DNA of 42,369 bases, from assembly GCA_965368175.1 (NCBI GenBank), contig CBDULX010000003.1, positions 1 to 42,369 of the forward strand. Reading direction: 5' to 3'. How positions within the stretch are numbered: position 1 is the first letter of the stretch; the number at the start of each line of letters is the position of its first letter. Below are positions 21,204 through 42,369 of this stretch, in pieces. The position numbers were made by a program, and so were the translations under genes. This DNA comes from an uncultured Gammaproteobacteria bacterium (lineage in GTDB: Bacteria > Pseudomonadota > Gammaproteobacteria > SZUA-229). The notes beneath the pieces are model-generated. The model was not told the origin of the DNA. It worked only from the letters and a program-made list of their open reading frames with translations, and made no database searches.

Positions 21204-22565
21204 ATGATAGATAAACCGGACACTGCTGAAAACACAGAAAATAAAATACAGGCGCTGTCTGATGCCCTGGAGTCCGGCACCCTGTATACAGCCCGTGGCA
21301 TGCTCAATGCCCTGCATCCTGCAGAAATCGCTCTGCTACTCGAATCTCTCCCCCCGCGTAATCGCGACCTCACCTGGGAACTGGTGAGTGACGATAACAA
21401 GGGTGAAGTATTAATCAGCCTGGGCGAAGAAGCGCGTGCTCTGCTGGTAAAAGACATGTCCCATGAGGCCCTGGTCAACGTCACCGAAGGTCTGGATCTG
21501 GACGACTCCGCTGACTTCATTCAGTCATTGCCCGATGCCCTCATCAACCGGGTACTGCAATCTCTCAACAGCCAGCACCGAGCGCTGCTGGAAACAGTAC
21601 TCTCCTACCCGGAAGACAGTGCCGGTGGTCTGATGAACACCGACACCATCACCATACGCCCGGAAGTGACCCTGGATGTGGTATTGCGTTATCTGCGCCT
21701 GCTGGGTGACATACCCAATCTTACCGACAGCATGATTGTGGTGGATCGAGCCAACCATTACCTGGGCACCCTGCCCCTGTCACAACTGCTCATTAACGAG
21801 CCCCACTTCACTGTGGCCGAAATCATGGACGACGAGTCCGAGTCTATACCCGTCACCATGCCCGACACCGAAGTTGCCAAACTGTTCGAGACCCACGACC
21901 TTATCTCCGCACCGGTGGTAGACAGCAATAATTACCTGCTGGGCAGAATCACCGTCGATGATGTGGTAGACGTTATCCGTGACGAAGCCGACCACTCATT
22001 ATTAAGCATGGCAGGTCTGGCTGACGAAGAAGACCTGTTCGCCCCGGCCATACCCAGCAGCTATCGACGTGCTATCTGGTTAGGCATTAACCTCATTACC
22101 GCTTTCATGGCCTCCTGGGTCGTTAGTAACTTCGAAGCCACCCTGGAAAAAGTAGTCACCGTCGCCATCCTCATGAACGTCGTCGCCAGCATGGGCGGCA
22201 TCGCCGGCAGCCAGACCATCACCCTGGTGATACGCGGACTGGCACTGGGCCAGGTCAGCAAAAACAACCGACGCTGGTTACTCAACAAGGAAATCGTCGT
22301 TGGCTTACTCAATGGCGCACTCTGGGCCATTGTGGTAGCCGCCATCGCCACACTCTGGTTCGGTGATTTCTCCATCGGCCTGGTCATCGCCGCCGCATTA
22401 ATTATCAATCTTTTCTTTGCCGCAACCTCGGGGGTGGTCATACCCATAGTGTTACGCAAAGTAGGTATAGACCCTGCGATAGCGGGCAGTGTCATACTCA
22501 CTACGGTGACAGATATTGTAGGGCTGCTGGCGTTTCTGGGATTGGCGACTGTGTTTTTGTTATAA
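21204..22565 (+). CDS. mgtE: Magnesium transporter MgtE
   Basis: LHPAEIA, YPEDSAGGLM, CBS pair, GRITVDDV, GGIAGSQ, IDPAIAG, TTVTDIVG. Confidence 0.96.
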   Translation: MIDKPDTAENTENKIQALSDALESGTLYTARGMLNALHPAEIALLLESLPPRNRDLTWELVSDDNKGEVLISLGEEARALLVKDMSHEALVNVTEGLDLDDSADFIQSLPDALINRVLQSLNSQHRALLETVLSYPEDSAGGLMNTDTITIRPEVTLDVVLRYLRLLGDIPNLTDSMIVVDRANHYLGTLPLSQLLINEPHFTVAEIMDDESESIPVTMPDTEVAKLFETHDLISAPVVDSNNYLLGRITVDDVVDVIRDEADHSLLSMAGLADEEDLFAPAIPSSYRRAIWLGINLITAFMASWVVSNFEATLEKVVTVAILMNVVASMGGIAGSQTITLVIRGLALGQVSKNNRRWLLNKEIVVGLLNGALWAIVVAAIATLWFGDFSIGLVIAAALIINLFFAATSGVVIPIVLRKVGIDPAIAGSVILTTVTDIVGLLAFLGLATVFLL

Positions 22566-22731
22566 GTTATAACAGAGCATTCGTAATTTACAGGTTTATA
22601 AAGGCACGCTCGTGCTTAAGCACGATGCAAAAAACCGTTACATTGCCTGTAACTAACCTGAAAGTAATTGAAAACCCCCGTTTCACCCAGACCTGGTATG
22701 CTTTATTATTGTAATAATGAAACGATATATA

Positions 22732-22783
22732 GAACGGCGCAATTTACCGAAATATACGGTGTTCGTAGATTACACTGTTATGC
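22732..22783 (+). other. attI-like (or terminal attC) integron recombination site
   Basis: gaacggcgcaatttaccgaaatatacggtgttcgtagattacactGTTATGC; the core GTTATGC (22777-22783) is just before the RBS of cassette 1 and nearly complementary to that cassette's inverse core GTATAAC. Confidence 0.5.
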
Positions 22784-22798
22784 AATAAAGGAATAATT

Positions 22799-23101
22799 AT
22801 GAAGCATTACATAATTGTTGAAACAAATGTTACCAATCCAGGATGGATTCCTGATTATTTAAAAAATGTAACACCTATGGTTGAAAAATTCGGTGGTAAA
22901 TATCTAACTAGAACATCGAATATTCAATTACTAGAAGGAAACAGTGAAATACCTCAATTTTCGTTAATCGCAGAGTTTCCATCTAAAGAAAGTGCCACTA
23001 ATTTTTATAACAGCACTGAATACGAGCCCTACAAAAAAGCAAGGCAAAAGGGCTCGAGCAGCAAATTTCTACTTGTTCCAGCTGAGGGCACAAACGTATA
23101 A
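22799..23101 (+). CDS. DUF1330 domain protein (gene cassette 1)
   Basis: YIIVETNVTNP...FGGKYLTR...LEG...AEFPSKESA..FYNS.EY; AT-rich; stop codon lies inside the attC inverse core. Confidence 0.85.
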   Translation: MKHYIIVETNVTNPGWIPDYLKNVTPMVEKFGGKYLTRTSNIQLLEGNSEIPQFSLIAEFPSKESATNFYNSTEYEPYKKARQKGSSSKFLLVPAEGTNV

Positions 23102-23176
23102 CAAGTCGGTCAAATTGTTCGCTATCACTCACTCGGACCGCCATAAAGCGGAGGCCATTTACCTATAACGTTAGCT
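23096..23176 (+). other. Integron attC site (intact)
   Basis: R'' GTATAAC; L'' ggtCaaat pairing with L' atttacc with one extra base; central gttcgctatcactcactcggaccgccataaagcgg; R' GTTAGCT; 81 bp. Confidence 0.82.
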
Positions 23177-23188
23177 TAATAAAAAACC

Positions 23189-23656
23189 ATGGGAAAACCT
23201 ATATTCGAACAAACAAGCAATATTAACGACCCCATTGAAGAGTACCTGTCTAATTCAATCATCGATTATGGCAAAGCACAACTCAATGACGAATTACCAC
23301 TAAAACTTTACTGTAGCTGTAAATCTAACCAAGGGGAGTTACTTGGTGCGGTTATGGGCACAAAAACAATAAACTTATTCTTTATCTCACACATCTTTGT
23401 TGATAAAGAATATCGAAGAAAAGGCATTGGAACTAAGTTACTATCACAAATCGAAATCAAAGCTAAAAATATCGGCTGCAATATTATCAGACTCAATACT
23501 TTCAATAACTTATCTCAAAATTTTTATTTAAATAATGGCTATTCAGAAACCACACGTATCAATAGTTATATGAGTGGCTTTGACCTGGTGTATTATGAGA
23601 AAACAATCAGCCAGGTGCATAAAATCGTTCGCTACCGCTCACTGGACCCGCCATAA
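23189..23656 (+). CDS. GNAT family N-acetyltransferase (gene cassette 2; C-terminus reads into a decayed attC)
   Basis: IFVDKEYRRKGIGTKLL (motif A), LNTF...NFYLNNGY. Confidence 0.88.
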   Translation: MGKPIFEQTSNINDPIEEYLSNSIIDYGKAQLNDELPLKLYCSCKSNQGELLGAVMGTKTINLFFISHIFVDKEYRRKGIGTKLLSQIEIKAKNIGCNIIRLNTFNNLSQNFYLNNGYSETTRINSYMSGFDLVYYEKTISQVHKIVRYRSLDPP

Positions 23657-23686
23657 AGCGGCGACCCTTTATGCTAAACCCTATGC
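23609..23686 (+). other. Decayed attC site
   Basis: Same core as attC1 (gttcgctaccgctcact.ggacccgccataaagcgg); gcataaa/tttatgc arms kept; R'' and R' boxes mutated. Confidence 0.7.
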
Positions 23687-23710
23687 TAATTAAATAATAA
23701 GCAACATTGT

Positions 23711-24607
23711 ATGACAATATATATTCTCGGAACACTGACAATACTATTACCGCTATTGCTTATTGCATGGCTCTCATTCAGCAGGGTAAATAGTAAACTT
23801 GAATGGTTTCTGAGGCTCATATTTGTAGGGAGTATTGTGCTTATCTGTTACAGAATCGGCACATGGTCAATGACCAGCTATTACATCAGGTTCGTTATCG
23901 TGACAATTTACGCAGGCTCAGCACTTTTTTCATTTCATCATATCCGTGCCGGACCCTGGCATATACCTAAAGAACAGTGGTTTCGCGTTGGCATTACCGC
24001 TCTATTCAGTTTGTCAGGCATAACATTAAGTGCTTTAACGCTTACTGGAGCCTCGTATTCAGGCACTAACATAGTCAGCCTGGAATTCCCATTTGTTCAG
24101 GGCAGTTATTATGTAATACAGGGCGGTAGCAATATAATAACAAATCCGTTTCATAGCATGTCACCGAATGGAAAATATGCTATCGACATTGTTAAAATAA
24201 ATAATCAAGGCAACAGGGCTACGACCCTTTTTCCGAAAAAACTCGATCAGTATCATATTTTTGGTGAGGTAGTTCACAGTCCATGTGAAGGTAGAGTTAC
24301 AACAATTGTTAGCAATTTACCGGATAATATTCCCGTAAGTGTGGATCGGAAACACCCTGCTGGGAACCACATTGTTATTGAATGCGGCAGCATTAAAGTA
24401 ATGCTCACACATTTAAAAGAAGGCAGCCTGATTGTCAGTAAAGGTGATAACGTTAAAGAGAGCCAGCCTGTCGGAATGGTTGGCAATTCTGGTTACACGG
24501 ATGAGTCGCACCTTCACATACAGGCTAATAGCCATGATGGAAACCCAGTTGCAATCATGTTTGGTGGAAGGTTTCTTTCAATTAATGACTTATACGTTAT
24601 TAATTAA
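23711..24607 (+). CDS. Membrane-anchored M23 family metallopeptidase (probable cassette 3)
   Basis: About 4 N-terminal TM helices; FH...YAID, AGNHIVI, HLKEGS, GMVGNSGYTDESHLH; followed by GCCTAAC (24614-24620), an attC inverse core. Confidence 0.82.
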   Translation: MTIYILGTLTILLPLLLIAWLSFSRVNSKLEWFLRLIFVGSIVLICYRIGTWSMTSYYIRFVIVTIYAGSALFSFHHIRAGPWHIPKEQWFRVGITALFSLSGITLSALTLTGASYSGTNIVSLEFPFVQGSYYVIQGGSNIITNPFHSMSPNGKYAIDIVKINNQGNRATTLFPKKLDQYHIFGEVVHSPCEGRVTTIVSNLPDNIPVSVDRKHPAGNHIVIECGSIKVMLTHLKEGSLIVSKGDNVKESQPVGMVGNSGYTDESHLHIQANSHDGNPVAIMFGGRFLSINDLYVIN

Positions 24608-24674
24608 CTCATGGCCTAACCGGGCAAATAAAAATACACATCCTGACTCCGATCTTTCATAACATGAGGTAGAA

Positions 24675-25028
24675 ATGAAAATTGCTGTAACAAGTCAAAA
24701 CCGTAAAACCATAACGGAACATGCAGGCCGATGCAGAAAGTTCTGGGTATTCAATATTGAGAACAACAAGATTGTTGATAAACAACTTCTTGAACTTCCA
24801 AAAGAGCAGGCATTTCATGATAGCTCAGCGCATGAGCCACATCCTCTGGATAATGTAGACGTCATAATTACAGGAGGTATGGGCCAGGGACTGATGATGC
24901 GACTCGAAAGGAAAGGCACTAAAGGCATAGTAACGAAAGAAAGTGACCCCGAAAGGGCTGTTTTACTTTATCTTAATGGCTCGCTACGCAGTGAACAATT
25001 TCATCAGCATGGTCATGAACAGCAATAG
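24675..25028 (+). CDS. NifB/NifX (FeMo-cofactor-binding fold) family protein
   Basis: MKIAVTS..ITEHAGRCRKF, DVIITGGMGQGL, His-rich tail; GAGG RBS. Confidence 0.8.
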   Translation: MKIAVTSQNRKTITEHAGRCRKFWVFNIENNKIVDKQLLELPKEQAFHDSSAHEPHPLDNVDVIITGGMGQGLMMRLERKGTKGIVTKESDPERAVLLYLNGSLRSEQFHQHGHEQQ

Positions 25029-25413
25029 CGGCCTGAGAATTACATATACTTATCCACCCACATAATGTGCGAACTTAAACCCCTGCCTACCTGGGGTCAA
25101 TTATTGCTTTTTATAATTACTAATATAACCCTGTAATTATCGCGAATATTAGAATACATCAACATAATACTCTACCATTTAATTTTAGTGGCAAATCCTG
25201 TTTACAAATACTTTTCTGCATATAGGATATATATAACAGTTTAGCGCATGATTTTATCAGCAAACTCTTAAGCCATTCACAATGTTAAATACAATAACAA
25301 AAGCAAAATGAATATGCATGGAAATGACGTGCTTTTTAACTAATATTAATATCTGCACGTATCGACCGATACTAAGGTATATACTCGTACTAACATTAAC
25401 AGGTAAAGATAAT

Positions 25414-26100
25414 TTGTCTACTGATAACACAACGGATAGCAACAAACACAGTAATGGTTTTACAAAAGAGCTACTGGAACTTGCCCTGAAGTCGAGTGGT
25501 GATTCTGTATGGTTCTGGAACATTGAATCTGGTGAGCTCGTATTTGACCGAAACTGGATAAAACACCTGGGTTACAAGCCCAGCCTGTTCAAACTCACTT
25601 TTGAATGGTGGGACAATAACATAAAACCTGAACACAAACCTGTATTTGAAACCGCCTTCAATGACTACCTGGAAGGTCATAAAGACAATTTCGAAATAGA
25701 GTACCAGATACGCACTAACACTGGTGACTGGATATGGGTGTGGGCAATAGGCAAATGCATTGAATACGGCAATGATGGGAAACCATTGATATTCATCGGC
25801 ACACATCGAGATATTACAAGAATAAAAAATAATGAATATACTCTAACCAGCCTCACAAATGATTTAGAACAAAAGGTATTAGAAAGAACCCAGGAGCTGG
25901 AAAATGCTTTGCATGAAATCAAAACCTTACAGGGCATTATACCTATTTGCGGTTATTGTAAAAAAATTAGAGATGACCAGGGTAGCTGGAATCAACTTGA
26001 AAAATACATATGCGAACACTCTAACGCGGCCTTTAGCCATGGAGTCTGCCCTGATTGTTATATAAAAATCATTAATGACAACAGTAAACCCAATAAATAA
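25414..26100 (+). CDS. PAS/PAC domain protein with C-terminal Cys/His (Zn-binding) module
   Basis: PAS_3 motifs (WFWN, EYQIR..GDWIWV..G, GTHRDIT); coiled coil; IPICGYCKKIRDD..W...FSHGVCPDC. Start uncertain (TTG 25414 with AGGT upstream; frame open from 25318). Confidence 0.8.
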   Translation: MSTDNTTDSNKHSNGFTKELLELALKSSGDSVWFWNIESGELVFDRNWIKHLGYKPSLFKLTFEWWDNNIKPEHKPVFETAFNDYLEGHKDNFEIEYQIRTNTGDWIWVWAIGKCIEYGNDGKPLIFIGTHRDITRIKNNEYTLTSLTNDLEQKVLERTQELENALHEIKTLQGIIPICGYCKKIRDDQGSWNQLEKYICEHSNAAFSHGVCPDCYIKIINDNSKPNK

Positions 26101-26304
26101 AACTCAGCGCACTAATTATGACTGACTCATCCAATAGATTTGAGGCATCAAACTGCTGTGATCATCACAAGTTAAAAAAAGCAGAGTTGAACCTATAATT
26201 ATTAAACTATTTGAAAAACAACTACCAACTCAACAAAAAGAAGCTATAAAAATACATTAAATCAATATCACAACAGTTTATATTATAACTAGAGGAATAT
26301 AATT

Positions 26305-26706
26305 ATGAGCATGATGAAAGAATTCAAAGATTTTGCAGTGAAAGGCAATGTTGTTGACATGGCTGTTGGTATCGTTATTGGCGCGGCATTCGGTAAAATT
26401 GTTTCAGCCCTGGTTGCAGGTGTACTCATGCCTCCAATAGGAGTGCTATTAGGTGGGGTAGATTTTTCCAATTTGGCATATATAGTTAAAGAAGCTGCAG
26501 GCGATGCACCTGCTGTAGTAATTAGCTATGGAGCCTTCATTCAAACTGTCATCGATTTTGCCATCATCGCTTTTGCTATATTTATGGTGGTTAAGGGAAT
26601 CAACTCTCTTAAGAAAAAAGAGGAAGCTGCGCCTAAAGCCCCACCAGAACCTTCAGTAGAAGAAGTTTTACTTACGGAAATACGTGATTTATTGAAAGCG
26701 AAATAA
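26305..26706 (+). CDS. mscL: Large-conductance mechanosensitive channel
   Basis: [37 protein letters not shown]. Confidence 0.97.
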
Positions 26707-26856
26707 CAGGAAATTCTTCTCAACATATCATATAACAACATCATCAACCCGGTCTGTAAAATTTTTTGTAACTATCGATACAACGAATTCTACTGCCGTT
26801 TATAACAAACCTTATATATTGAAGTTATCCATGGAGCAAAGATACAGCTAGCTTCC

Positions 26857-26930
26857 CTAAGGAACTTCTGATTAAGTCTGATTGTTTTAGCCAGCATAAA
26901 ACAATCATGACTTGAACAGAGGCCCCCTAA
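26857..26930. mobile_element. MITE copy with CTAA direct repeats
   Basis: CTAA-ggaacttctgattaagtc-tgattgtttta..taaaacaatca-tgacttgaacagaggcccc-CTAA; lies between convergent mscL and RND genes. Confidence 0.7.
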
Positions 26931-26954
26931 GTCGATGAGGCATATAAAAAACCA

Positions 26955-31593: not shown

Positions 31594-33801
31594 ATGGACA
31601 AAATAGTTTCATTGATAATGCACCTCATGCGTAGAAACCCGGCCCTGGGCGTTTCCGGTTTGTATGGCGTCATGTCCCTGATCTGGATATTATTTTCCGA
31701 CCAGCTGTCATTACTTATCTCGCAAGACCCTGAATCTCTTATCCATATACAGATGCTTAAAGGCATGGTTTTCATTGTGATTACCACACTGATTCTGTAT
31801 CTATTTTTAAAAAACATATTTGATCGTTATGCTGCCAGCGAACAACACATTAAACAGAGCAATGAGCGTTATCTGTCACTGGTTGAGTCGACCAGCGACT
31901 GGATCTGGGAAGTGGACAAAGATGGCTTTTATACTTATGTCAGTCCTAAAATAAAAGATTTGCTGGGTTACGAACCCCAAGAAATTTTAGGAAAAAGCCC
32001 AACTGACCTGATGCCGGAACAGGAAGCAGAGCGAATTACCAGGATATTGAGAAAATTATTTGCAGCACATGAACCAATAATTAACCTGGAAAACATCAAC
32101 CTGCACATAGATGGTCACCCGGTAATACTGGAAACCAGTGGCGTCCCATTACTCGATAACAAAGGAAAACTGCTGGGCTACCGCGGCATCGACCGTGACA
32201 TTACCGAGCGTAGGCAGTTTGAAACCAGGGCGAATGAACTGGAACGTAAATTCATAACTTTATTAGGGAACTTACGGGGTATGGCTTATCGTTGCCATAA
32301 TGATCACGACTGGACCATGGAATTCATAAGCGATAACTGTCAGGCGCTCACTGGTTACCATATCGACGATCTCCAGTTCAGCCAGAACATTTCCTACAGT
32401 GACCTCATACACCCGGATGATCGAAATATGGTGTGGCAAACTGTACAGCAAAGACTGGCTATGGACTTACCATTCCAGCTGGAGTATCGCATTCAAACCT
32501 TATCCGGTGAGATCAAATGGGTGTGGGAGCAGGGAATTGGGATTAAAGATCCCAGTAACATGCTGATTGCACTGGAAGGCTTTATTACCGATATTACGGA
32601 GCACAAGCTCGCAGAACAGGAAAATGAAAAACTTCAGTCACAATTACGCCATGTACAAAAAATGGAAGCTATCGGTACCCTGGCCGGGGGTATAGCCCAT
32701 GATTTTAACAATCTCCTCACGCCCATCATAGGTTACACCGAACTGGCTATAGAAACCCTGAAAAACAATACAAAGGTTACCACAAATCTGCAACAGGTCC
32801 TCAAAGCCTCAGAACGAGCCAAGGACCTCGTTAAACAGATACTTTCATTCAGTCATCATAGTGATCATGAACGAATACCTGTTCAGATTAATCTGGTTGT
32901 CAATGATGCAATGAAATTATTACGAGCCTCCATCCCGACAACTATAGAAGTCAGACAGAACATCAACTCTAACTGTGGCTATGTACTGGCAGACTCTTCC
33001 CAAATGCATCAAATTGTAATGAATCTGTGCACCAATGCTTACCACTCTATGCGTAATGAAGGTGGCGTTTTGCATACCAGTCTTGAAAAAGTAACCGTCA
33101 ACCCAGAGCAAGCCAGTCTAATAAGCGTTCAACCGGGTGCTTTTATTAAACTTTTAGTCAGCGATACCGGCCACGGCATGGATGAGCAAATCATGGAACG
33201 CATTTTTGAACCTTATTACACTACCAAATCAGAAGACGAAGGCACAGGCCTGGGGCTATCTGTTGTTCATGGCATCGTTCGCAGCCATGGCGGTGGCATT
33301 TCTGTCAGCAGTATAGTTGGTGAAGGCACTAAGTTTGAAATCTATTTACCACAAATCAGTACAGCCAGTCCACAACCTGGAATAGACACGCTTGAACCCA
33401 TTCCATTAGGTAATGAACATATCATGTTAATCGATGATGAAGAATCTATCGTTCAAATGGAAACCAGTCTGCTGGAAAACCTGGGGTACAAAGTCACCGG
33501 CATGACCAGCAGTAATGAAGCACTGGCCATCTTTGAAAGCCAGCCGGATGATATCGACCTGATCATCAGCGATATGACAATGCCACATATGACAGGTGCA
33601 GAACTGGCTATAAAATTCCTGAACATAAGACCAAACATGCCTATTATTTTATGCACCGGTTTCAGTGAAATAATCAACGAAGAGAAGGCCAGAGAAATCG
33701 GCATTCAGGCGTACATTAAGAAGCCTGTACACAGGAAAGACCTGGCCATTGCGGTACGAAGAACACTGGATAGTTCCATGAACTCTCCGCCAGTTAATTA
33801 G
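31594..33801 (+). CDS. Hybrid sensor histidine kinase (2 TM, 2 PAS, HisKA, HATPase, REC)
   Basis: [34 protein letters not shown], receiver LIDDE/SDMTMP/KP. Start uncertain (31552-31627). Confidence 0.93.
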
Positions 33802-33923
33802 TCAGAAGATTTTTTCTACTAATACCAAAAAAGTCAGACCTTGATATCAACACTTACCTCACTTGATTCTGATTGTGTAACACGCACATCACAAGGATAA
33901 ACGTCGAAGGGGCGAACGCACAA

Positions 33924-34178
33924 ATGTCTAAAATAGCATTCTCAAAAGAAGAAAGAGAAATCCTTGTTCGAAAAATCCAGCTCTACTTTAGCGAAGAACT
34001 TCACCAAAAAATTGGTCAATTCGATGCCCAGTTCCTGCTTGACTTCATCTCAGATGAAATTGGACCCTATTATTACAACCTGGGTTTATATGATGCTCAG
34101 GCTGTATTAGACAGTAAGCTCGAAAATATAGTCGAGGCTATCTATGAAATTGAAAAACCGACAGAGTTTGTCAGGTAA
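33924..34178 (+). CDS. DUF2164 family protein
   Basis: IQLYFSEEL..IGQFDAQFLLDFI..IGPYYYNLGLYDA; ATG 33924. Confidence 0.85.
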   Translation: MSKIAFSKEEREILVRKIQLYFSEELHQKIGQFDAQFLLDFISDEIGPYYYNLGLYDAQAVLDSKLENIVEAIYEIEKPTEFVR

Positions 34179-34577
34179 ATACTTTAACCAACTAATCAAT
34201 TTCCACAGCTGATCGCTCAAAATTTGTTTTCGTAGAACAAACTAACAATCTCGACTTTTAACACATATGAGCATTGCGAGTATTATGAAGACGAATTCAT
34301 TGCCGGAGAATATACCATTAGTATCTGAAGAGACTCTCTGATCCATGGCACACGCTCACCACGTTTGAAAAGATTGACAATAAATCATCACCGTGGTTAA
34401 GAGGCAGATGACAGACAATACATTTTAAAAATTTAATAGCAAATAACGACTAAACGAGCAAGCATTATATTTCGCGTCCGAAACTGATGCTATTTCTCTT
34501 TCCAGAAAGTCGAAAAATGTCCTCCGCTTCCTTAGAAGTAATACATCAGGTGACTCGCCGTTATTAATATAACACCT

Positions 34578-35021
34578 CTAATGCACTGGCAAATGTTCAG
34601 GCAAATGATTACGAATATCATCCGCACTATGCAAAGTAAGATTTTTGTCTAATTCAAAACAGATAGATTTTCTAACTGCATCTGACAACTGGTTTCGTAT
34701 CTCACCAAGAAAAGCGGGTGCCGATATAATTAACAATTTCTTAAATTTGTTTGCCTGGTAAGCTTCATCCAGATGTCTGGCAATCCATTTGGCAAAAACA
34801 GTCATTTCCTGCTCCCTGGGTTCAGTCTCATCCTGATATGCATGACCACCAGCACCAGCTGCACCCGCATTTTTACCAGGCAGATCACTGACCATCAACT
34901 GATCATGCAATCGCCCTTCGGGATGTGATATCGACTCTATCTCCTTCAATGCTGAAGTCGGTGTTTCTGCAGAAAAGATACGCCCTCGGCTACTGTCTGC
35001 AACAAGTACCCAGCTTTTCAT
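34578..35021 (-). CDS. Host-attachment family protein (baeRF-like, eRF1-related fold)
   Basis: WVLVADSSRGRIF, SDLPG, FAKWIA, LLIISAPAFLGEIR, ELDKNLT; AGGAG RBS. Confidence 0.85.
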   Translation of the reverse strand: MKSWVLVADSSRGRIFSAETPTSALKEIESISHPEGRLHDQLMVSDLPGKNAGAAGAGGHAYQDETEPREQEMTVFAKWIARHLDEAYQANKFKKLLIISAPAFLGEIRNQLSDAVRKSICFELDKNLTLHSADDIRNHLPEHLPVH

Positions 35022-35596
35022 TTGTACACTCCTTATTTAGGCATTGATTAAACATACAATAATATACATCAACTACACATAAAACATCGAAAAATTGTAG
35101 CTATCGGTGTATCAATTTTATTCAGCTCAATATAACAATCAACTGACAGACGAATCAGTCAATAAAATGCATTCTTACTATAGAGCAAACATAAATGCGT
35201 ATACAAGTACTCTCTCACATAGAGTTCAGCAGAAAAAATTCTATGGGCCTGTTTCTTTAATTATGTATACGTTAACCTGATTACAGATTGCGCTAATATT
35301 AGAAACAGCTACTTTCTAGATATAAATTTAAATACTACTTTTTCTATCCTTATTACGCTTGATAGAAGTTAATTATTATTATGACTGCCGACTAATTGTA
35401 ATCAGTAATTGTACTTATATTAAGACATTAAATTAATTTATAGTGTGGTGCTCAACCATAAAACCTACGGCCGACGTTTTACGCTGCTATAAAGTGCACA
35501 ACCAAAAGACGTTACAGTTGACGAACATCAACACATAAAGACCTTAAGTCACGTTAAGCTTTTTATAATTGATAAGGCTAACATGGAATCATCGAC

Positions 35597-35842
35597 ATGA
35601 CACAGTCTCTTAACCTAAAACAGGTAGGTGCACCGGATCCTGAGCTTAAAAACTCCCCCGTCATTATGGAAATCGACGAAGAACGTGAATACATGAAACA
35701 GGAAATACCAGGTGAGCCGGTATGTTATTTTAACAATGAAAGCTATGGCAATGGCAGCTTAATCTGCAGCAGCAATATATTGTTACGTTGTGATCATGGT
35801 ATCTGGATACAGTCGGGAACCTGCGATCCTGAAAATCTGTAA
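35597..35842 (+). CDS. Small Cys-containing hypothetical protein (DUF1496-like)
   Basis: CYFNNESY..G..IC....LLRC..G.W...GTC. Confidence 0.7.
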   Translation: MTQSLNLKQVGAPDPELKNSPVIMEIDEEREYMKQEIPGEPVCYFNNESYGNGSLICSSNILLRCDHGIWIQSGTCDPENL

Positions 35843-35938
35843 CATCTCAGAAGACGTGATTAAATCTCGTAAAATCCACCTTTATTGGTATCCATTTCTC
35901 AAAATAGTTTGATATTATCCCACGTTAGTGAGCTGGCG

Positions 35939-36433
35939 ATGAAAAAAATCGGGAAACATACAAGATTCAAAAGATTTACTAAAGATGTTCTGGTCCATAC
36001 GCCATTCATAAAAATGGTTATCTTACTGGTAGTATTATGGCTGTTCTTTTCTACTGGATTATATCTTGCAGAGCGGCATACTCCGGGAGCCGTTGTGACA
36101 TCGTTTGTTAACGCCTTATACTGGGGTGTGGCCGCTTTCTCGACCGCTGGCATAGCTGATACTCCAAAATCTGGTGTTGCTCAATTGGTAGGTGGCATCT
36201 GGATAATAGTAGGTTCAACTCTGTTCTTTGGCACAATTGTAGCGACAGTAACCACGTATTTTATGCGTCCTCTGCAACGTCCCGGAAAAAGAATAATCGA
36301 TTCCATAGAATACAATCTTGAGCAACTGGATGAATTATCAATCGAAGAACTGGATTTACTAAAAGAAACTGTCGACACACTCATTATTCATGTTGAACAC
36401 TTAAAAAAGAAGCAAACATTAAAATCACAATAA
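35939..36433 (+). CDS. Two-TM potassium-channel-family protein (Ion_trans_2) with atypical filter
   Basis: TM1, FVNALYWGVAAFSTAGIAD.P, TM2, C-terminal acidic helix. Confidence 0.8.
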   Translation: MKKIGKHTRFKRFTKDVLVHTPFIKMVILLVVLWLFFSTGLYLAERHTPGAVVTSFVNALYWGVAAFSTAGIADTPKSGVAQLVGGIWIIVGSTLFFGTIVATVTTYFMRPLQRPGKRIIDSIEYNLEQLDELSIEELDLLKETVDTLIIHVEHLKKKQTLKSQ

Positions 36434-36491
36434 CTGTTAGTTGCATATATCTGCGATTAGCAAGTAGCAGACTGATCAAAAAATTTAAAAC

Positions 36492-36588
36492 TTTGCCACA
36501 AAGGCACAGAGAACACAGAGTTATTTATAAGTACGTCCTAATACAACTACGACTGTTTTCTCTGCGTTCTCTATGCCTCTGTGGCAAA
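36492..36588. repeat. Inverted repeat of 9-bp CACAGAG-type units
   Basis: tttgccacaaaggcacagagaacacagag / ctctgcgttctctatgcctctgtggcaaa; 26 of 29 positions complementary. Confidence 0.8.
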
Positions 36589-36649
36589 TCTTTTGATTTC
36601 AAGTTAGTTAATGTCAGCTACAGGGTGTTAAAAGACACTCAGCTCAGCC

Positions 36650-40133: not shown

Positions 40134-40751
40134 ATGAAAAAACTCTTATCTGTAATTTTTATGTCACTTACCGTTATAGGTTGCGCTACTCTATTCTCAC
40201 CCAGCTCAGATACAATAAAATTAGTTTCAGACCAGAACAATATCACCGCCTATTTAGATGGTGTCCGTCTCGGGACATTACCACTTGAAGTATCTCTTGA
40301 ACGGGATGTCTTCAATCACAAATCTTTTACCTTCAAAAAACCAGGCTATAAAACACTGGAAGTACGTGCAAAAAAATCATTCAATAAAATTTCTTTCTTA
40401 AATCTTACATCTGGACTTTCCTGGACAACCGATGCAGTTAGTGGAAATATGATGGAGTATTCACCAGGACAATACCTGATTGAACTTGAGCCTTTGAATG
40501 TTTCACAATTCGACCGCAAAGAGCTCGAATTAAAATACTTTATTGGATCACAGTTCAGAAACATTCAAACTGATTTAGCACGTGGTAAAGGAATCCATAT
40601 AGATACATTGTTTGTGCTGGTAAATGACACTTACAAACAATCGGGCAATGTAATTAATCCCAGGCTTAAAACCACATTAATTACCAGTAAAAACCCTGCT
40701 GAGTTTATAAATGCATTACTAAGCAGCATTAAAACTAACACATCGACTTAA
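40134..40751 (+). CDS. Lipoprotein with PEGA-like domain
   Basis: Lipobox VIGC; YLDG..LGTLP, FKKPGY, DAVSG; C-terminal DLARGKG.HIDTL. Confidence 0.7.
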   Translation: MKKLLSVIFMSLTVIGCATLFSPSSDTIKLVSDQNNITAYLDGVRLGTLPLEVSLERDVFNHKSFTFKKPGYKTLEVRAKKSFNKISFLNLTSGLSWTTDAVSGNMMEYSPGQYLIELEPLNVSQFDRKELELKYFIGSQFRNIQTDLARGKGIHIDTLFVLVNDTYKQSGNVINPRLKTTLITSKNPAEFINALLSSIKTNTST

Positions 40752-40769
40752 AACCTCTGCCGATAACCA

Positions 40770-40826
40770 GGGAACCTCTGATCAAGTCTCATGGCTTTAT
40801 AAAGTCAGACTTATTCAGAGGTTCCC
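40770..40826. mobile_element. MITE copy (best-preserved inverted repeats)
   Basis: gggaacctctgatcaagtct ... agacttattcagaggttccc. Confidence 0.75.
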
Positions 40827-41214
40827 ATCAAATCCAGAGAGTAATAGTCGCTTAAATTAGCCATTATTGCTCTCCATTCCCTTCTTTCCAGTATTTATAA
40901 AATCTATAGGAAAATCTCCCACCAGCCTGAATTTTTAAACCCTCTAATCAAAGATCATATTCATCATAAGCCTGACACCATGTCAAACTCCTGTAACACA
41001 CAAAACTCAATAACTTACAAACTAAATGTAATGTTTTTTCGTGAAATATCTCTCTAACTGGAAACTATACTCATCAGCTAAATTAAACGTTTCCTAAATC
41101 ACTTAAAAATGAATACATCTTTGTGATGCACTTAAAAGTTAATTTGATTTATGTCTCCTATTGTTAACAACATTATCAGGCCAGTCCTGCATTCACAGTT
41201 TATAGGTAATCGCG

Positions 41215-42369
41215 ATGTTGAAGTCCATTAAGAGCATATTGTTCACGGTTTTGTTTTTTTACGCATTTGCAGCCAGTGCGAACTCATTCACACTGGTGCC
41301 TATATCAGATCCACCAGAACCACAAGAACCACCTCCGGTTCCCTCTGCCTTTGGCACTGTTGAAGGTACAGCAGGACTGGATTTCGAAATTCTTACGGGT
41401 GGCAATATTACAGTAAACGCGGGAGCTTTTACTGCGTCTGGGACTGTAGACAGTAACGGGAATTTTTCCCTTCCTGTTAGTGTTGATGACCCATTCTCTA
41501 TTAACGTAAACCTGGTTTTTAATGATTTTCTTCCCAATGTAAGGGTGAGTATGGAAAATAATACTCAACTTACTCAGGATGAAGTACGACCCTTTGATCT
41601 GACCCATCCATCCGGTCGCTTGCTCACCAGAGTCACTTTACTGAACGGCACACTTCAAAATATAAACGTATCGGCCAGTTCTTCAACCATAAACAACAAT
41701 GGCTTATCTCAATCTTTCACTGCTAATGGCAGTGCAAACCGCAACAATGATAAAGATCCAGAAATACTTTTCGCTATGCCATCGGCTATCATTACTACAC
41801 TGACAGGAACAATTGAGGCAACCAATAGCAATGGCTGTACAGTTAGTCGTGAGTTAGCTGAACAGAGCATTACTATTAATGATGCTTCTTTACCTGCTAA
41901 CACAGACCCGGAAACCCTGGAATGGACTGTTGATTTAAGCAACGACCCAACTACCTGCCCCACCGGCACGATTAGTGGCAATTTCAGCATCGATGGACTT
42001 GATGATATAGAAAACCTGTTTTCTCAACATCGACTGACATTCCAGGGGCCTGAAAGAACTAATATCAACATTAAAAATTCTAATACTGATCCTGTTTCTT
42101 TTCCTTATTTTTATACCACAGAACCTGTTTTAGAAGGTACTTATAAGACTATTGAAACCAGTATCTTCGTAAAACCATATAAGAGACTGAGTTTCCCCAG
42201 TACATCGATCGAAGTATTGGGCAACACAAATTTTGACCGCATACATGCTGTGGGTACATTGCATGGTAAAGTAAACTTAACAGGTGACTGGGACTATACG
42301 AATATTAGCGATGCGAGTGTTATTGCCTCCAGTTCCGAACCCGGTTCAACTGCAATTTCAATGCGTGCT
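41215..42369 (+). CDS. Large secreted beta-rich protein, N-terminal part (runs off the right edge)
   Basis: Not in the ORF track; open from ATG 41215 to the end: MLKSIKSILFTVLFFYAFAASA|NSFTLVPISDPPEPQEPPPVPSAFGTVEG...; signal peptide, Pro-rich linker, Thr/Ser/Asn-rich. Confidence 0.8.
   Translation, partial: MLKSIKSILFTVLFFYAFAASANSFTLVPISDPPEPQEPPPVPSAFGTVEGTAGLDFEILTGGNITVNAGAFTASGTVDSNGNFSLPVSVDDPFSINVNLVFNDFLPNVRVSMENNTQLTQDEVRPFDLTHPSGRLLTRVTLLNGTLQNINVSASSSTINNNGLSQSFTANGSANRNNDKDPEILFAMPSAIITTLTGTIEATNSNGCTVSRELAEQSITINDASLPANTDPETLEWTVDLSNDPTTCPTGTISGNFSIDGLDDIENLFSQHRLTFQGPERTNINIKNSNTDPVSFPYFYTTEPVLEGTYKTIETSIFVKPYKRLSFPSTSIEVLGNTNFDRIHAVGTLHGKVNLTGDWDYTNISDASVIASSSEPGSTAISMRA

Follow-up and report, generated by a model that had tools for sequence, protein, structure and literature searches.

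A probable short cassette array without a nearby integron integrase downstream of mgtE in an uncultured gammaproteobacterium

The stretch of DNA analysed here (the window, 42,369 bases) is contig CBDULX010000003.1, hereafter C3, of an uncultured gammaproteobacterium of the SZUA-229 lineage. Its assembly (GCA_965368175.1) comprises 3.1 Mb in 317 contigs with 46% GC and is estimated to be 94% complete. About 210 nucleotides (nt) downstream of mgtE, the window carries a row of small genes (DUF1330, GNAT, M23 and perhaps a FeMo-co-like gene) which, with a probability of roughly 0.78, represent a short integron cassette array inserted at a fixed site, with no integrase on the contig. This reading is based on an attC site at the end of the first gene (W1), recognised by a covariance model (R1) built from other genomes, on an eroded homologue of that site at the end of the second gene (W2), and on a left junction at which related sequences switch to other genes. 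Cassette elements of this kind are known and common in the family; the more interesting part is the apparently reused docking site distant from any integrase. The features of the locus are as follows, with the slash in G/TT marking the crossover.

21204–22565, + strand: mgtE (Pfam MgtE, MgtE_N and CBS), a conserved core gene and the left flank of the array
22650–22776, + strand: non-coding spacer that is conserved across the genus and ends ...GTTCGTAGATTACACTG; candidate left half of the cassette docking site
22777–22783, + strand: GTTATGC core with the crossover G/TT, start of cassette 1; homology with the congener G003 and with metagenome contig L108 stops here
22799–23101, + strand: open reading frame (ORF) of cassette 1, a DUF1330 protein of 100 amino acids (aa) (Pfam PF07045, E 1e-21)
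23096–23176, + strand: attC of cassette 1 (W1), 81 nt, canonical geometry, apparently intact (R1, model positions 1–78)
23189–23656, + strand: ORF of cassette 2, a GNAT acetyltransferase (Pfam E 4e-13)
23609–23686, + strand: eroded attC of cassette 2 (W2), from alignment A2 with intact copies of loci L086 and L087
23711–24607, + strand: third gene, a membrane-anchored M23 peptidase of 298 aa (Pfam PF01551, E 1e-9)
24614–24620, + strand: GCCTAAC, possible last R'' trace, not demonstrable; the motif is present
24675–25028, + strand: Nitro_FeMo-Co-like gene of 117 aa (Pfam PF02579), possibly a fourth, fully fixed cassette
25318–26100, + strand: PAS-domain gene, probably native right flank outside the array, linked to the same AcrB-like gene in G003 (contig C72)
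26305–26706, co-oriented: mscL, a separate variable module

All the small genes from DUF1330 to mscL are co-oriented, and the AcrB-like gene beyond mscL lies on the opposite strand. The GC content of the array region is 37–40%, versus 46% for the genome, and a drop to 33–40% extends over ~22.8–27 kb. Contigs from four public marine-sediment runs (two studies) span mgtE-DUF1330-W1, W1-GNAT-W2, W2-M23-FeMo and M23-to-mscL; thus, contig C3 is not chimeric at these points.

The attC site of the first cassette and its relatives

Model R1 was trained on 35 attC sites from arrays adjoining the integron integrase IntI in six relatives (alignment A1, with canonical R and L pairs) and was built without any sequence of this genome. 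With filters off, it matches the + strand at W1 over all 78 model positions with 37.3 bits, corresponding to E-values of 2.2e-6 in 47 kb and 1.5e-4 genome-wide, and W1 ranks third among the seven matches in the genome at E≤1. W1 consists of R'' GTATAAC (23096–23102), a 5-nt spacer AAGTC, L'' GGT[C]AAAT, L' ATTTACC, a 6-nt spacer TATAAC and R' GTTAGCT (23170–23176). The TAA stop codon of the DUF1330 gene (23099–23101) lies inside R''. The 8-nt L'' box contains one extra, extrahelical base, bracketed here, and pairs with the 7-nt L' box. The consensus boxes of attC sites are RYYYAAC for R'' and GTTRRRY for R', with conserved AAC and GTT triplets; both triplets are kept in W1, and each of its two R boxes has one off-consensus base. 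The geometry is that of the 35 integrase-adjacent sites, several of which share the spacer AAGTC. At the level of sequence, it is thus confirmed that 23096–23176 is an attC site beyond chance similarity. A search against Rfam at the gathering threshold returned no matches in the window.

Sites recognised by R1 are widespread among the 97 genomes of the same family, being found in 82 of them. By contrast with the model, BLAST of W1 finds matches in just four of the 97 genomes, own genome counted, because attC sequences are too lineage-specific for such a search. Homologues of the DUF1330 gene are present in three. Further attC matches or copies of the W type in the own genome are located at C125:8307–8400, C201:2005–2085 and 2351–2432, C109:8260–8343, C45:4174–4261, C50:1–57 and 513–613, and C135:5664–5744, so that contig C50 begins inside an attC.

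Five copies of the W type were identified in the genome with nhmmer: W1, W2, one on C135 and two on C50, of which one is truncated by the contig start. All five are located at the 3' ends of small ORFs. The copy on C135 has complementary R boxes (ATATAAT/ATTATAT) in which A replaces a conserved G. When one genome per species was scanned for the exact pattern, the same core was recovered in the records of two other metagenome-assembled genomes (MAGs), CAWECS010000007.1 and JAOUNS010000015.1. In both, the core lies inside dense arrays: L087 contains 12 R1 matches at E≤1e-4 in 6,033 bases, and L086 contains four at E≤1e-6 and two weaker ones. The L086 copy ends ...TTTATGCTAAAC/GTTATGT and represents the undamaged version of W2 and the C135 copy. 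In alignment A2, which comprises six copies, the canonical register pairs 76.9% of the cells versus 27–41% for slid registers, a difference that is indicative only given six sequences; seven pairs have changes on both sides. In the four sediment runs, depth at the W1 and W2 cores rises 3- to 20-fold over the local level, so that this attC type is common in those sediment communities.

Several results weigh against reading the locus as a cassette array. At minimum energy, the W1 bottom strand folds differently from the canonical hairpin (-6.7 kcal/mol, z -0.16), and its constrained-fold probability, estimated at 0.0017 against a training-site median of 0.012, lies within the range of the training sites but in the lower quartile, with lower values in nine of the 35. 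The box-and-pairing scanner with which we chose the training sites imposes the geometry that R1 then rewards; it is unspecific (1,497 matches in the genome) and served only to choose training sites within arrays. Only one site of the locus passes the model, W2 giving no R1 match at E≤10; for the second site, the term array thus depends on homology, and for the third and fourth genes on context. The sediment contigs, which cannot reveal rare forms, showed no excision joints, and a promoter and terminator scan gave no signal above shuffled sequences.

The same fold, no better than that of shuffles, would suit ordinary intergenic repeats, REP- or terminator-like (REP, repetitive extragenic palindromic), in a plain low-GC island, whose likeness to attC would be coincidental. 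Short repeats are indeed abundant in the genome, for example at 26857–26942, and attC-shaped boxes are found everywhere by the simple scanner. However, chance likeness would have to explain the match to an independently built model at an E-value of 2e-6, the restriction to five copies that all sit at the ends of small ORFs, the presence of the same repeat within arrays of 12 and four strong attC sites in other MAGs, the support for the canonical over the slid registers, and a junction placed exactly at G/TT. We regard this explanation as very improbable.

Eroded sites and the right border

The W1 and W2 repeats align at 73% identity over 73 nt. W2 keeps the L boxes and the central hairpin. In the comparison with intact copies, R' is CCTATGC, where those have GTTATGT or GTTAGGC (GTT>CCT), and R'' has lost three nucleotides (TAA), reading AGC-gap-C against AGCTAAC in the homologous GNAT cassette of the relative G067. 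Both conserved triplets, AAC in R'' and GTT in R', are gone. These are the triplets needed by the integrase, so that this copy can no longer be excised. The G067 homologue sits between two R1 matches, and its stop codon is the TAA within its R'' AGCTAAC. Owing to the loss of that TAA in W2, the GNAT frame extends 14–15 codons further, into the site, and terminates within the central hairpin's loop. On this alignment evidence, W2 is the relic of a true attC, homologous to intact sites in the dense arrays of two other MAGs. Sediment contigs match W2 up to position 23679, after which those from three runs continue with GTTAGCC and another gene, and those from the fourth with GTGAGCC. The GTTAGCC continuation indicates that copies of the W2 type with an intact R' are present in the same communities. 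A related variant concerns W1: in run X7, one contig at a depth of 6.3 is missing three nucleotides at 23100, inside R'', a single observation. The deletion would take out the AAC triplet of W1 and resembles the 3-nt loss in W2; the population may be polymorphic for attC inactivation.

M23-like genes are present in 11 of the 97 family genomes, and the best homologue (39% identity), on contig C288 of G091, is flanked by weak R1 matches (18.9 and 13.5 bits). These flanks, those of the GNAT homologue in G067 and the low counts of DUF1330 and M23-like genes in the family speak for cargo of the cassette type. The motif GCCTAAC and the 62 nt after M23 were considered as an attC trace and set aside as not demonstrable: there is no R1 match, the fold z-score is +0.88, and the motif is not separable from chance. 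From the 33 occurrences of RYYYAAC that the window has on its + strand, ~0.05 are expected in the 67-nt gap after M23. As for the next gene, its homologue in G003 stands alone on contig C243 with homology confined to 24659–24985, and no attC was found at the Nitro_FeMo-Co-like gene, which may nevertheless belong to the array as its fourth member. In G003, the PAS and AcrB-like genes share a contig and keep their relative order, and the FeMo-like gene and mscL stand alone on other contigs. This puts the probable end of the variable segment between 25029 and 25392. A single array spanning the entire low-GC island as far as mscL was also considered and was rejected for the right part, since the PAS-AcrB-like linkage also exists in G003 and the PAS, FeMo-like and mscL loci of that genome yielded no attC.

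An earlier, first-pass annotation of this DNA, made from the letters alone, had described a decaying array behind mgtE. All of its motifs (GTTATGC, GTATAAC, GTTAGCT and GCCTAAC) and ORFs are located where it placed them, and the covariance-model match that it anticipated at W1 falls on exactly those nucleotides. Its view of the second site as a mutated homologue is borne out by the alignment with intact copies, and its ranking of cassette 1 as the least decayed holds. Its description of the lone GCCTAAC as an R'' box could not be substantiated, for the reasons given above.

The gene mscL appears as an observation apart: a gene-sized, mobile-like module found in nine of the 97 family genomes, with a protein 93% identical in another genus (G026), flanks that differ in each genome and homology confined to 26223–26802. 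An attC-like trace after it, at 26730–26817, scores just 13.2 bits (E 0.73) and has CTTATAT as R'.

The junction after mgtE and the source of the integrase

Orthologues of mgtE are found in 90 of the 97 family genomes, and the array begins ~210 nt downstream of the gene, in the same orientation. In the congener G003, mgtE is 93% identical and the spacer is 72% identical up to the junction, ...CTGTTATGCAA, after which a different ORF follows. Two metagenome contigs, L108 and L103, encode mgtE with 93–94% identity and share the spacer. L108 reads ...GTTCGTATATGACACTG/TTAGGG; a glyoxalase-like gene comes next, then a weak attC (18.0 bits, E 0.077) and a further three small genes in one orientation with it. 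L103 stops 4 nt short of the junction. The window, G003 and L108 thus have a common left arm, ...GTTCGTAKATKAnnCTG, followed by three different first genes, which places the switch point at G/TT. This comparison identifies the GTTATGC core at 22777 as a genuine cassette junction. The pattern, namely, one site, different cassettes and a crossover at G/TT, is what would be expected of a docking site, and holds for three sequences only. A shorter attC candidate ending at the same core (22729–22783) was rejected, having no R1 match and a fold z-score of +0.25. A GST-like (glutathione S-transferase) gene at 2215–2889 of L108, within the mgtE-linked array, is 78% identical to the own gene at C50:2654–3310, and C50 itself starts with cassettes. 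One cassette pool appears to be shared between arrays.

Outside the genus, the place is occupied differently. Nineteen mgtE loci were fetched; G003 and G053 had less than 1.5 kb downstream and are not counted among the 17 relatives from other genera with at least 1.9 kb. In these 17, the array genes are absent within ~8 kb downstream of mgtE, and the usual neighbours are genes that our genome carries on C118 and C121. Together with the other first genes in G003 and L108, this agrees with the variable gene content after mgtE that the first-pass annotation had foreseen. An exact-pattern scan of metagenome contigs for the junction gave no matches.

No TIGR02249 or PF00589 match was found on the 42-kb contig in a six-frame search, and no recombinase lies within 19 kb on either side, in line with the earlier claim that no intI is adjacent. 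Nor was intI detected in the assembly as a whole, where the best TIGR02249 score is 75 bits versus a cut-off of 265, and PF00589 occurs only on C204 and C68, both matches being XerC/D-like. By contrast, IntI scores above the cut-off in 58 of the 97 family genomes. Many of these integrases are in frames of 450–500 aa with an N-terminal extension of ~150 aa, that of G003 among them. In G003, intI is located on a separate contig (G003:C277, L024), the flank of which is syntenic with our C29, where different genes occupy the corresponding position. The G003 contig begins exactly at the presumed attI crossover (CTGTT, cassette strand), which is preceded by three TCTGTAATATCAG-like repeats. The locus is not a complete integron: it is mgtE, rather than intI and attI, that is found 210 nt upstream of the junction.

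The integrase could have been lost on the spot. Under this scenario, the array would be the remnant of a complete chromosomal integron from which intI and attI, once between mgtE and the first cassette, were deleted, leaving the cassettes to decay. Integrons are common in the family, as the IntI counts show, loss of intI is among the origins of integrase-less clusters listed in Cury et al. 2016 (PMC4889954), and GTTATGC resembles the R box of attI, the attI cores of relatives being ...TGTAG/TTAKGC or ...CACTG/TTATGT. However, the spacer, which four sequences of the genus have in conserved form, measures only ~210 nt and contains no recombinase fragment; the congener keeps its intI on another contig, and the own syntenic place holds other genes; and mgtE is followed by unrelated genes in other genera. 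We therefore consider this origin improbable. For the former integron proposed in the first-pass annotation, with its adjacent intI lost, the spacer leaves no room for an intI remnant, so that insertion in trans is at least as likely. A conserved spacer of this size, combined with a congener intI located elsewhere, favours insertion in trans over loss of an adjacent integrase.

Somewhat less improbable, though still unlikely, is an active integron split by rearrangement, with an integrase that exists but is missing from the assembly and a first cassette that is still mobile. At an estimated completeness of 94%, intI may simply be missing from the assembly, a point that counts against our reading as well. 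Moreover, intI contigs of relatives are often short and break at arrays; the genome has more attC matches on C125, C201 (two), C109, C45, C50 and C135; the depth of the W-type core exceeds the local depth 3 to 20 times in four sediment runs; and the 3-nt deletion in the W1 R'' in one run suggests a polymorphic site. On the other side, there is no IntI-specific match and there are only two tyrosine recombinases in the 3.1 Mb, intI is not present at the place syntenic with that of G003, and W2 and the more distant sites would be dead under any integrase.

The sites of the array form a gradient away from the junction, from an intact site through a dead site to no site, which fits the entry of new cassettes at the mgtE side, as at attI. 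In the array that we favour, cassettes would have been delivered singly by an IntI encoded elsewhere, which would join the folded bottom strand of the attC of a circular cassette to a conserved double-stranded site after mgtE, either attI-like or attG-like. New cassettes would be placed beside mgtE and older ones would come to lie farther off; lacking integrase activity nearby, the older attC sites would erode and their genes would turn into ordinary chromosomal genes. Expression of the cassettes may plausibly occur by read-through from mgtE. Carried further, this leads to a tentative proposal, to which we give slightly less than even odds: the mgtE spacer may be an orphan docking site distant from the integrase, preserved in the genus as an additional attI-like site or as a naturally occurring attG hot spot, on which an integrase encoded elsewhere acts in trans. 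There, under mgtE read-through, a satellite array would have been built, with cassettes entering from the mgtE side and becoming domesticated as small deletions and substitutions destroyed the R boxes, as illustrated by the 3-nt loss in W2 and the 3-nt deletion in the W1 R'' of one sediment population. The proposal is drawn from the three junction sequences, a small sample that tells against it, as does a BLAST comparison of the mgtE spacer with the attI region beside the G003 intI, which found no similarity; 10 of the 17 bases left of the crossover agree by eye between the two.

Related systems and neighbouring features

Sedentary chromosomal integrons, such as the arrays of Vibrio repeats (VCR, Vibrio cholerae repeats), have homogeneous attC families with a central sequence conserved in each lineage and comprise tens to hundreds of genes. 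The recurrence of the W-type core on C3, C50 and C135 and in two other MAGs is reminiscent of such families. Unlike in Vibrio, there is no adjacent integrase here, the genes are three or four in number, and the sites are decaying.

The locus is closer to a cluster of attC sites with no integron integrase (CALIN), defined in Cury et al. 2016 (PMC4889954) as at least two detected attC sites less than 4 kb apart with no integron integrase nearby. As in the CALINs described there, co-oriented small promoterless genes lie between attC-type sites, the array is small, neither intI nor an intI pseudogene is found within 10 kb, and the cargo has unknown or housekeeping-like functions rather than resistance genes. 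In contrast to that definition, only one attC is detectable by the model here, the other sites being recognisable only by homology with intact copies. The label CALIN, used in the first-pass annotation, thus holds with respect to the absence of intI or its pseudogene within 10 kb, and with respect to the two detected attC sites, one is found by the model and the second only by homology. In terms of sequence detection, the locus is a SALIN (a single attC site without an integron integrase) with eroded remnants; in terms of homology, it is a decaying CALIN.

In the preprint of Loot et al. (bioRxiv 10.1101/2022.09.11.507474), small CALINs and SALINs are proposed to arise by integrase-mediated insertion at double-stranded genomic sites, that is, by attC × attG recombination. 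The present locus shares with the SALINs considered there a cassette with a single detectable attC, located outside any integron, on the 3' side of a chromosomal gene. That work describes numerous, dispersed attG sites; at the mgtE site, by contrast, a single genomic position carries different cassettes in three related genomes, several of them in a row, in what appears to be attI-like reuse.

Cassette clusters that lack an integrase are common, and their origin is debated, with integrase loss, rearrangement and insertion in trans under discussion. The mgtE locus presents several stages side by side: an apparently intact attC, a dead attC fused to the frame of a gene, genes without a trace of a site, and a left junction that appears reused. 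It can be regarded as a natural example of mobile cassettes turning into fixed chromosomal genes, and the mgtE site as a candidate natural docking site for the attC × genome route of insertion proposed from laboratory work. There is no resistance or virulence gene among the cargo.

Some features of the window are unrelated to the array. Other low-GC stretches (37–39%) are located at 33600–36600 and 40200–41400, and the first 1,200 positions (1–1200) have 64–66% GC. The interspersed short repeat at 26857–26942, between mscL and the AcrB-like gene, is REP-like or resembles a miniature inverted-repeat transposable element (MITE) and is unrelated to attC. G003 contains at least 25 copies, and copies are numerous in the own genome; depth at the repeat in the four sediment runs is 41–182, versus ~6–9 nearby.

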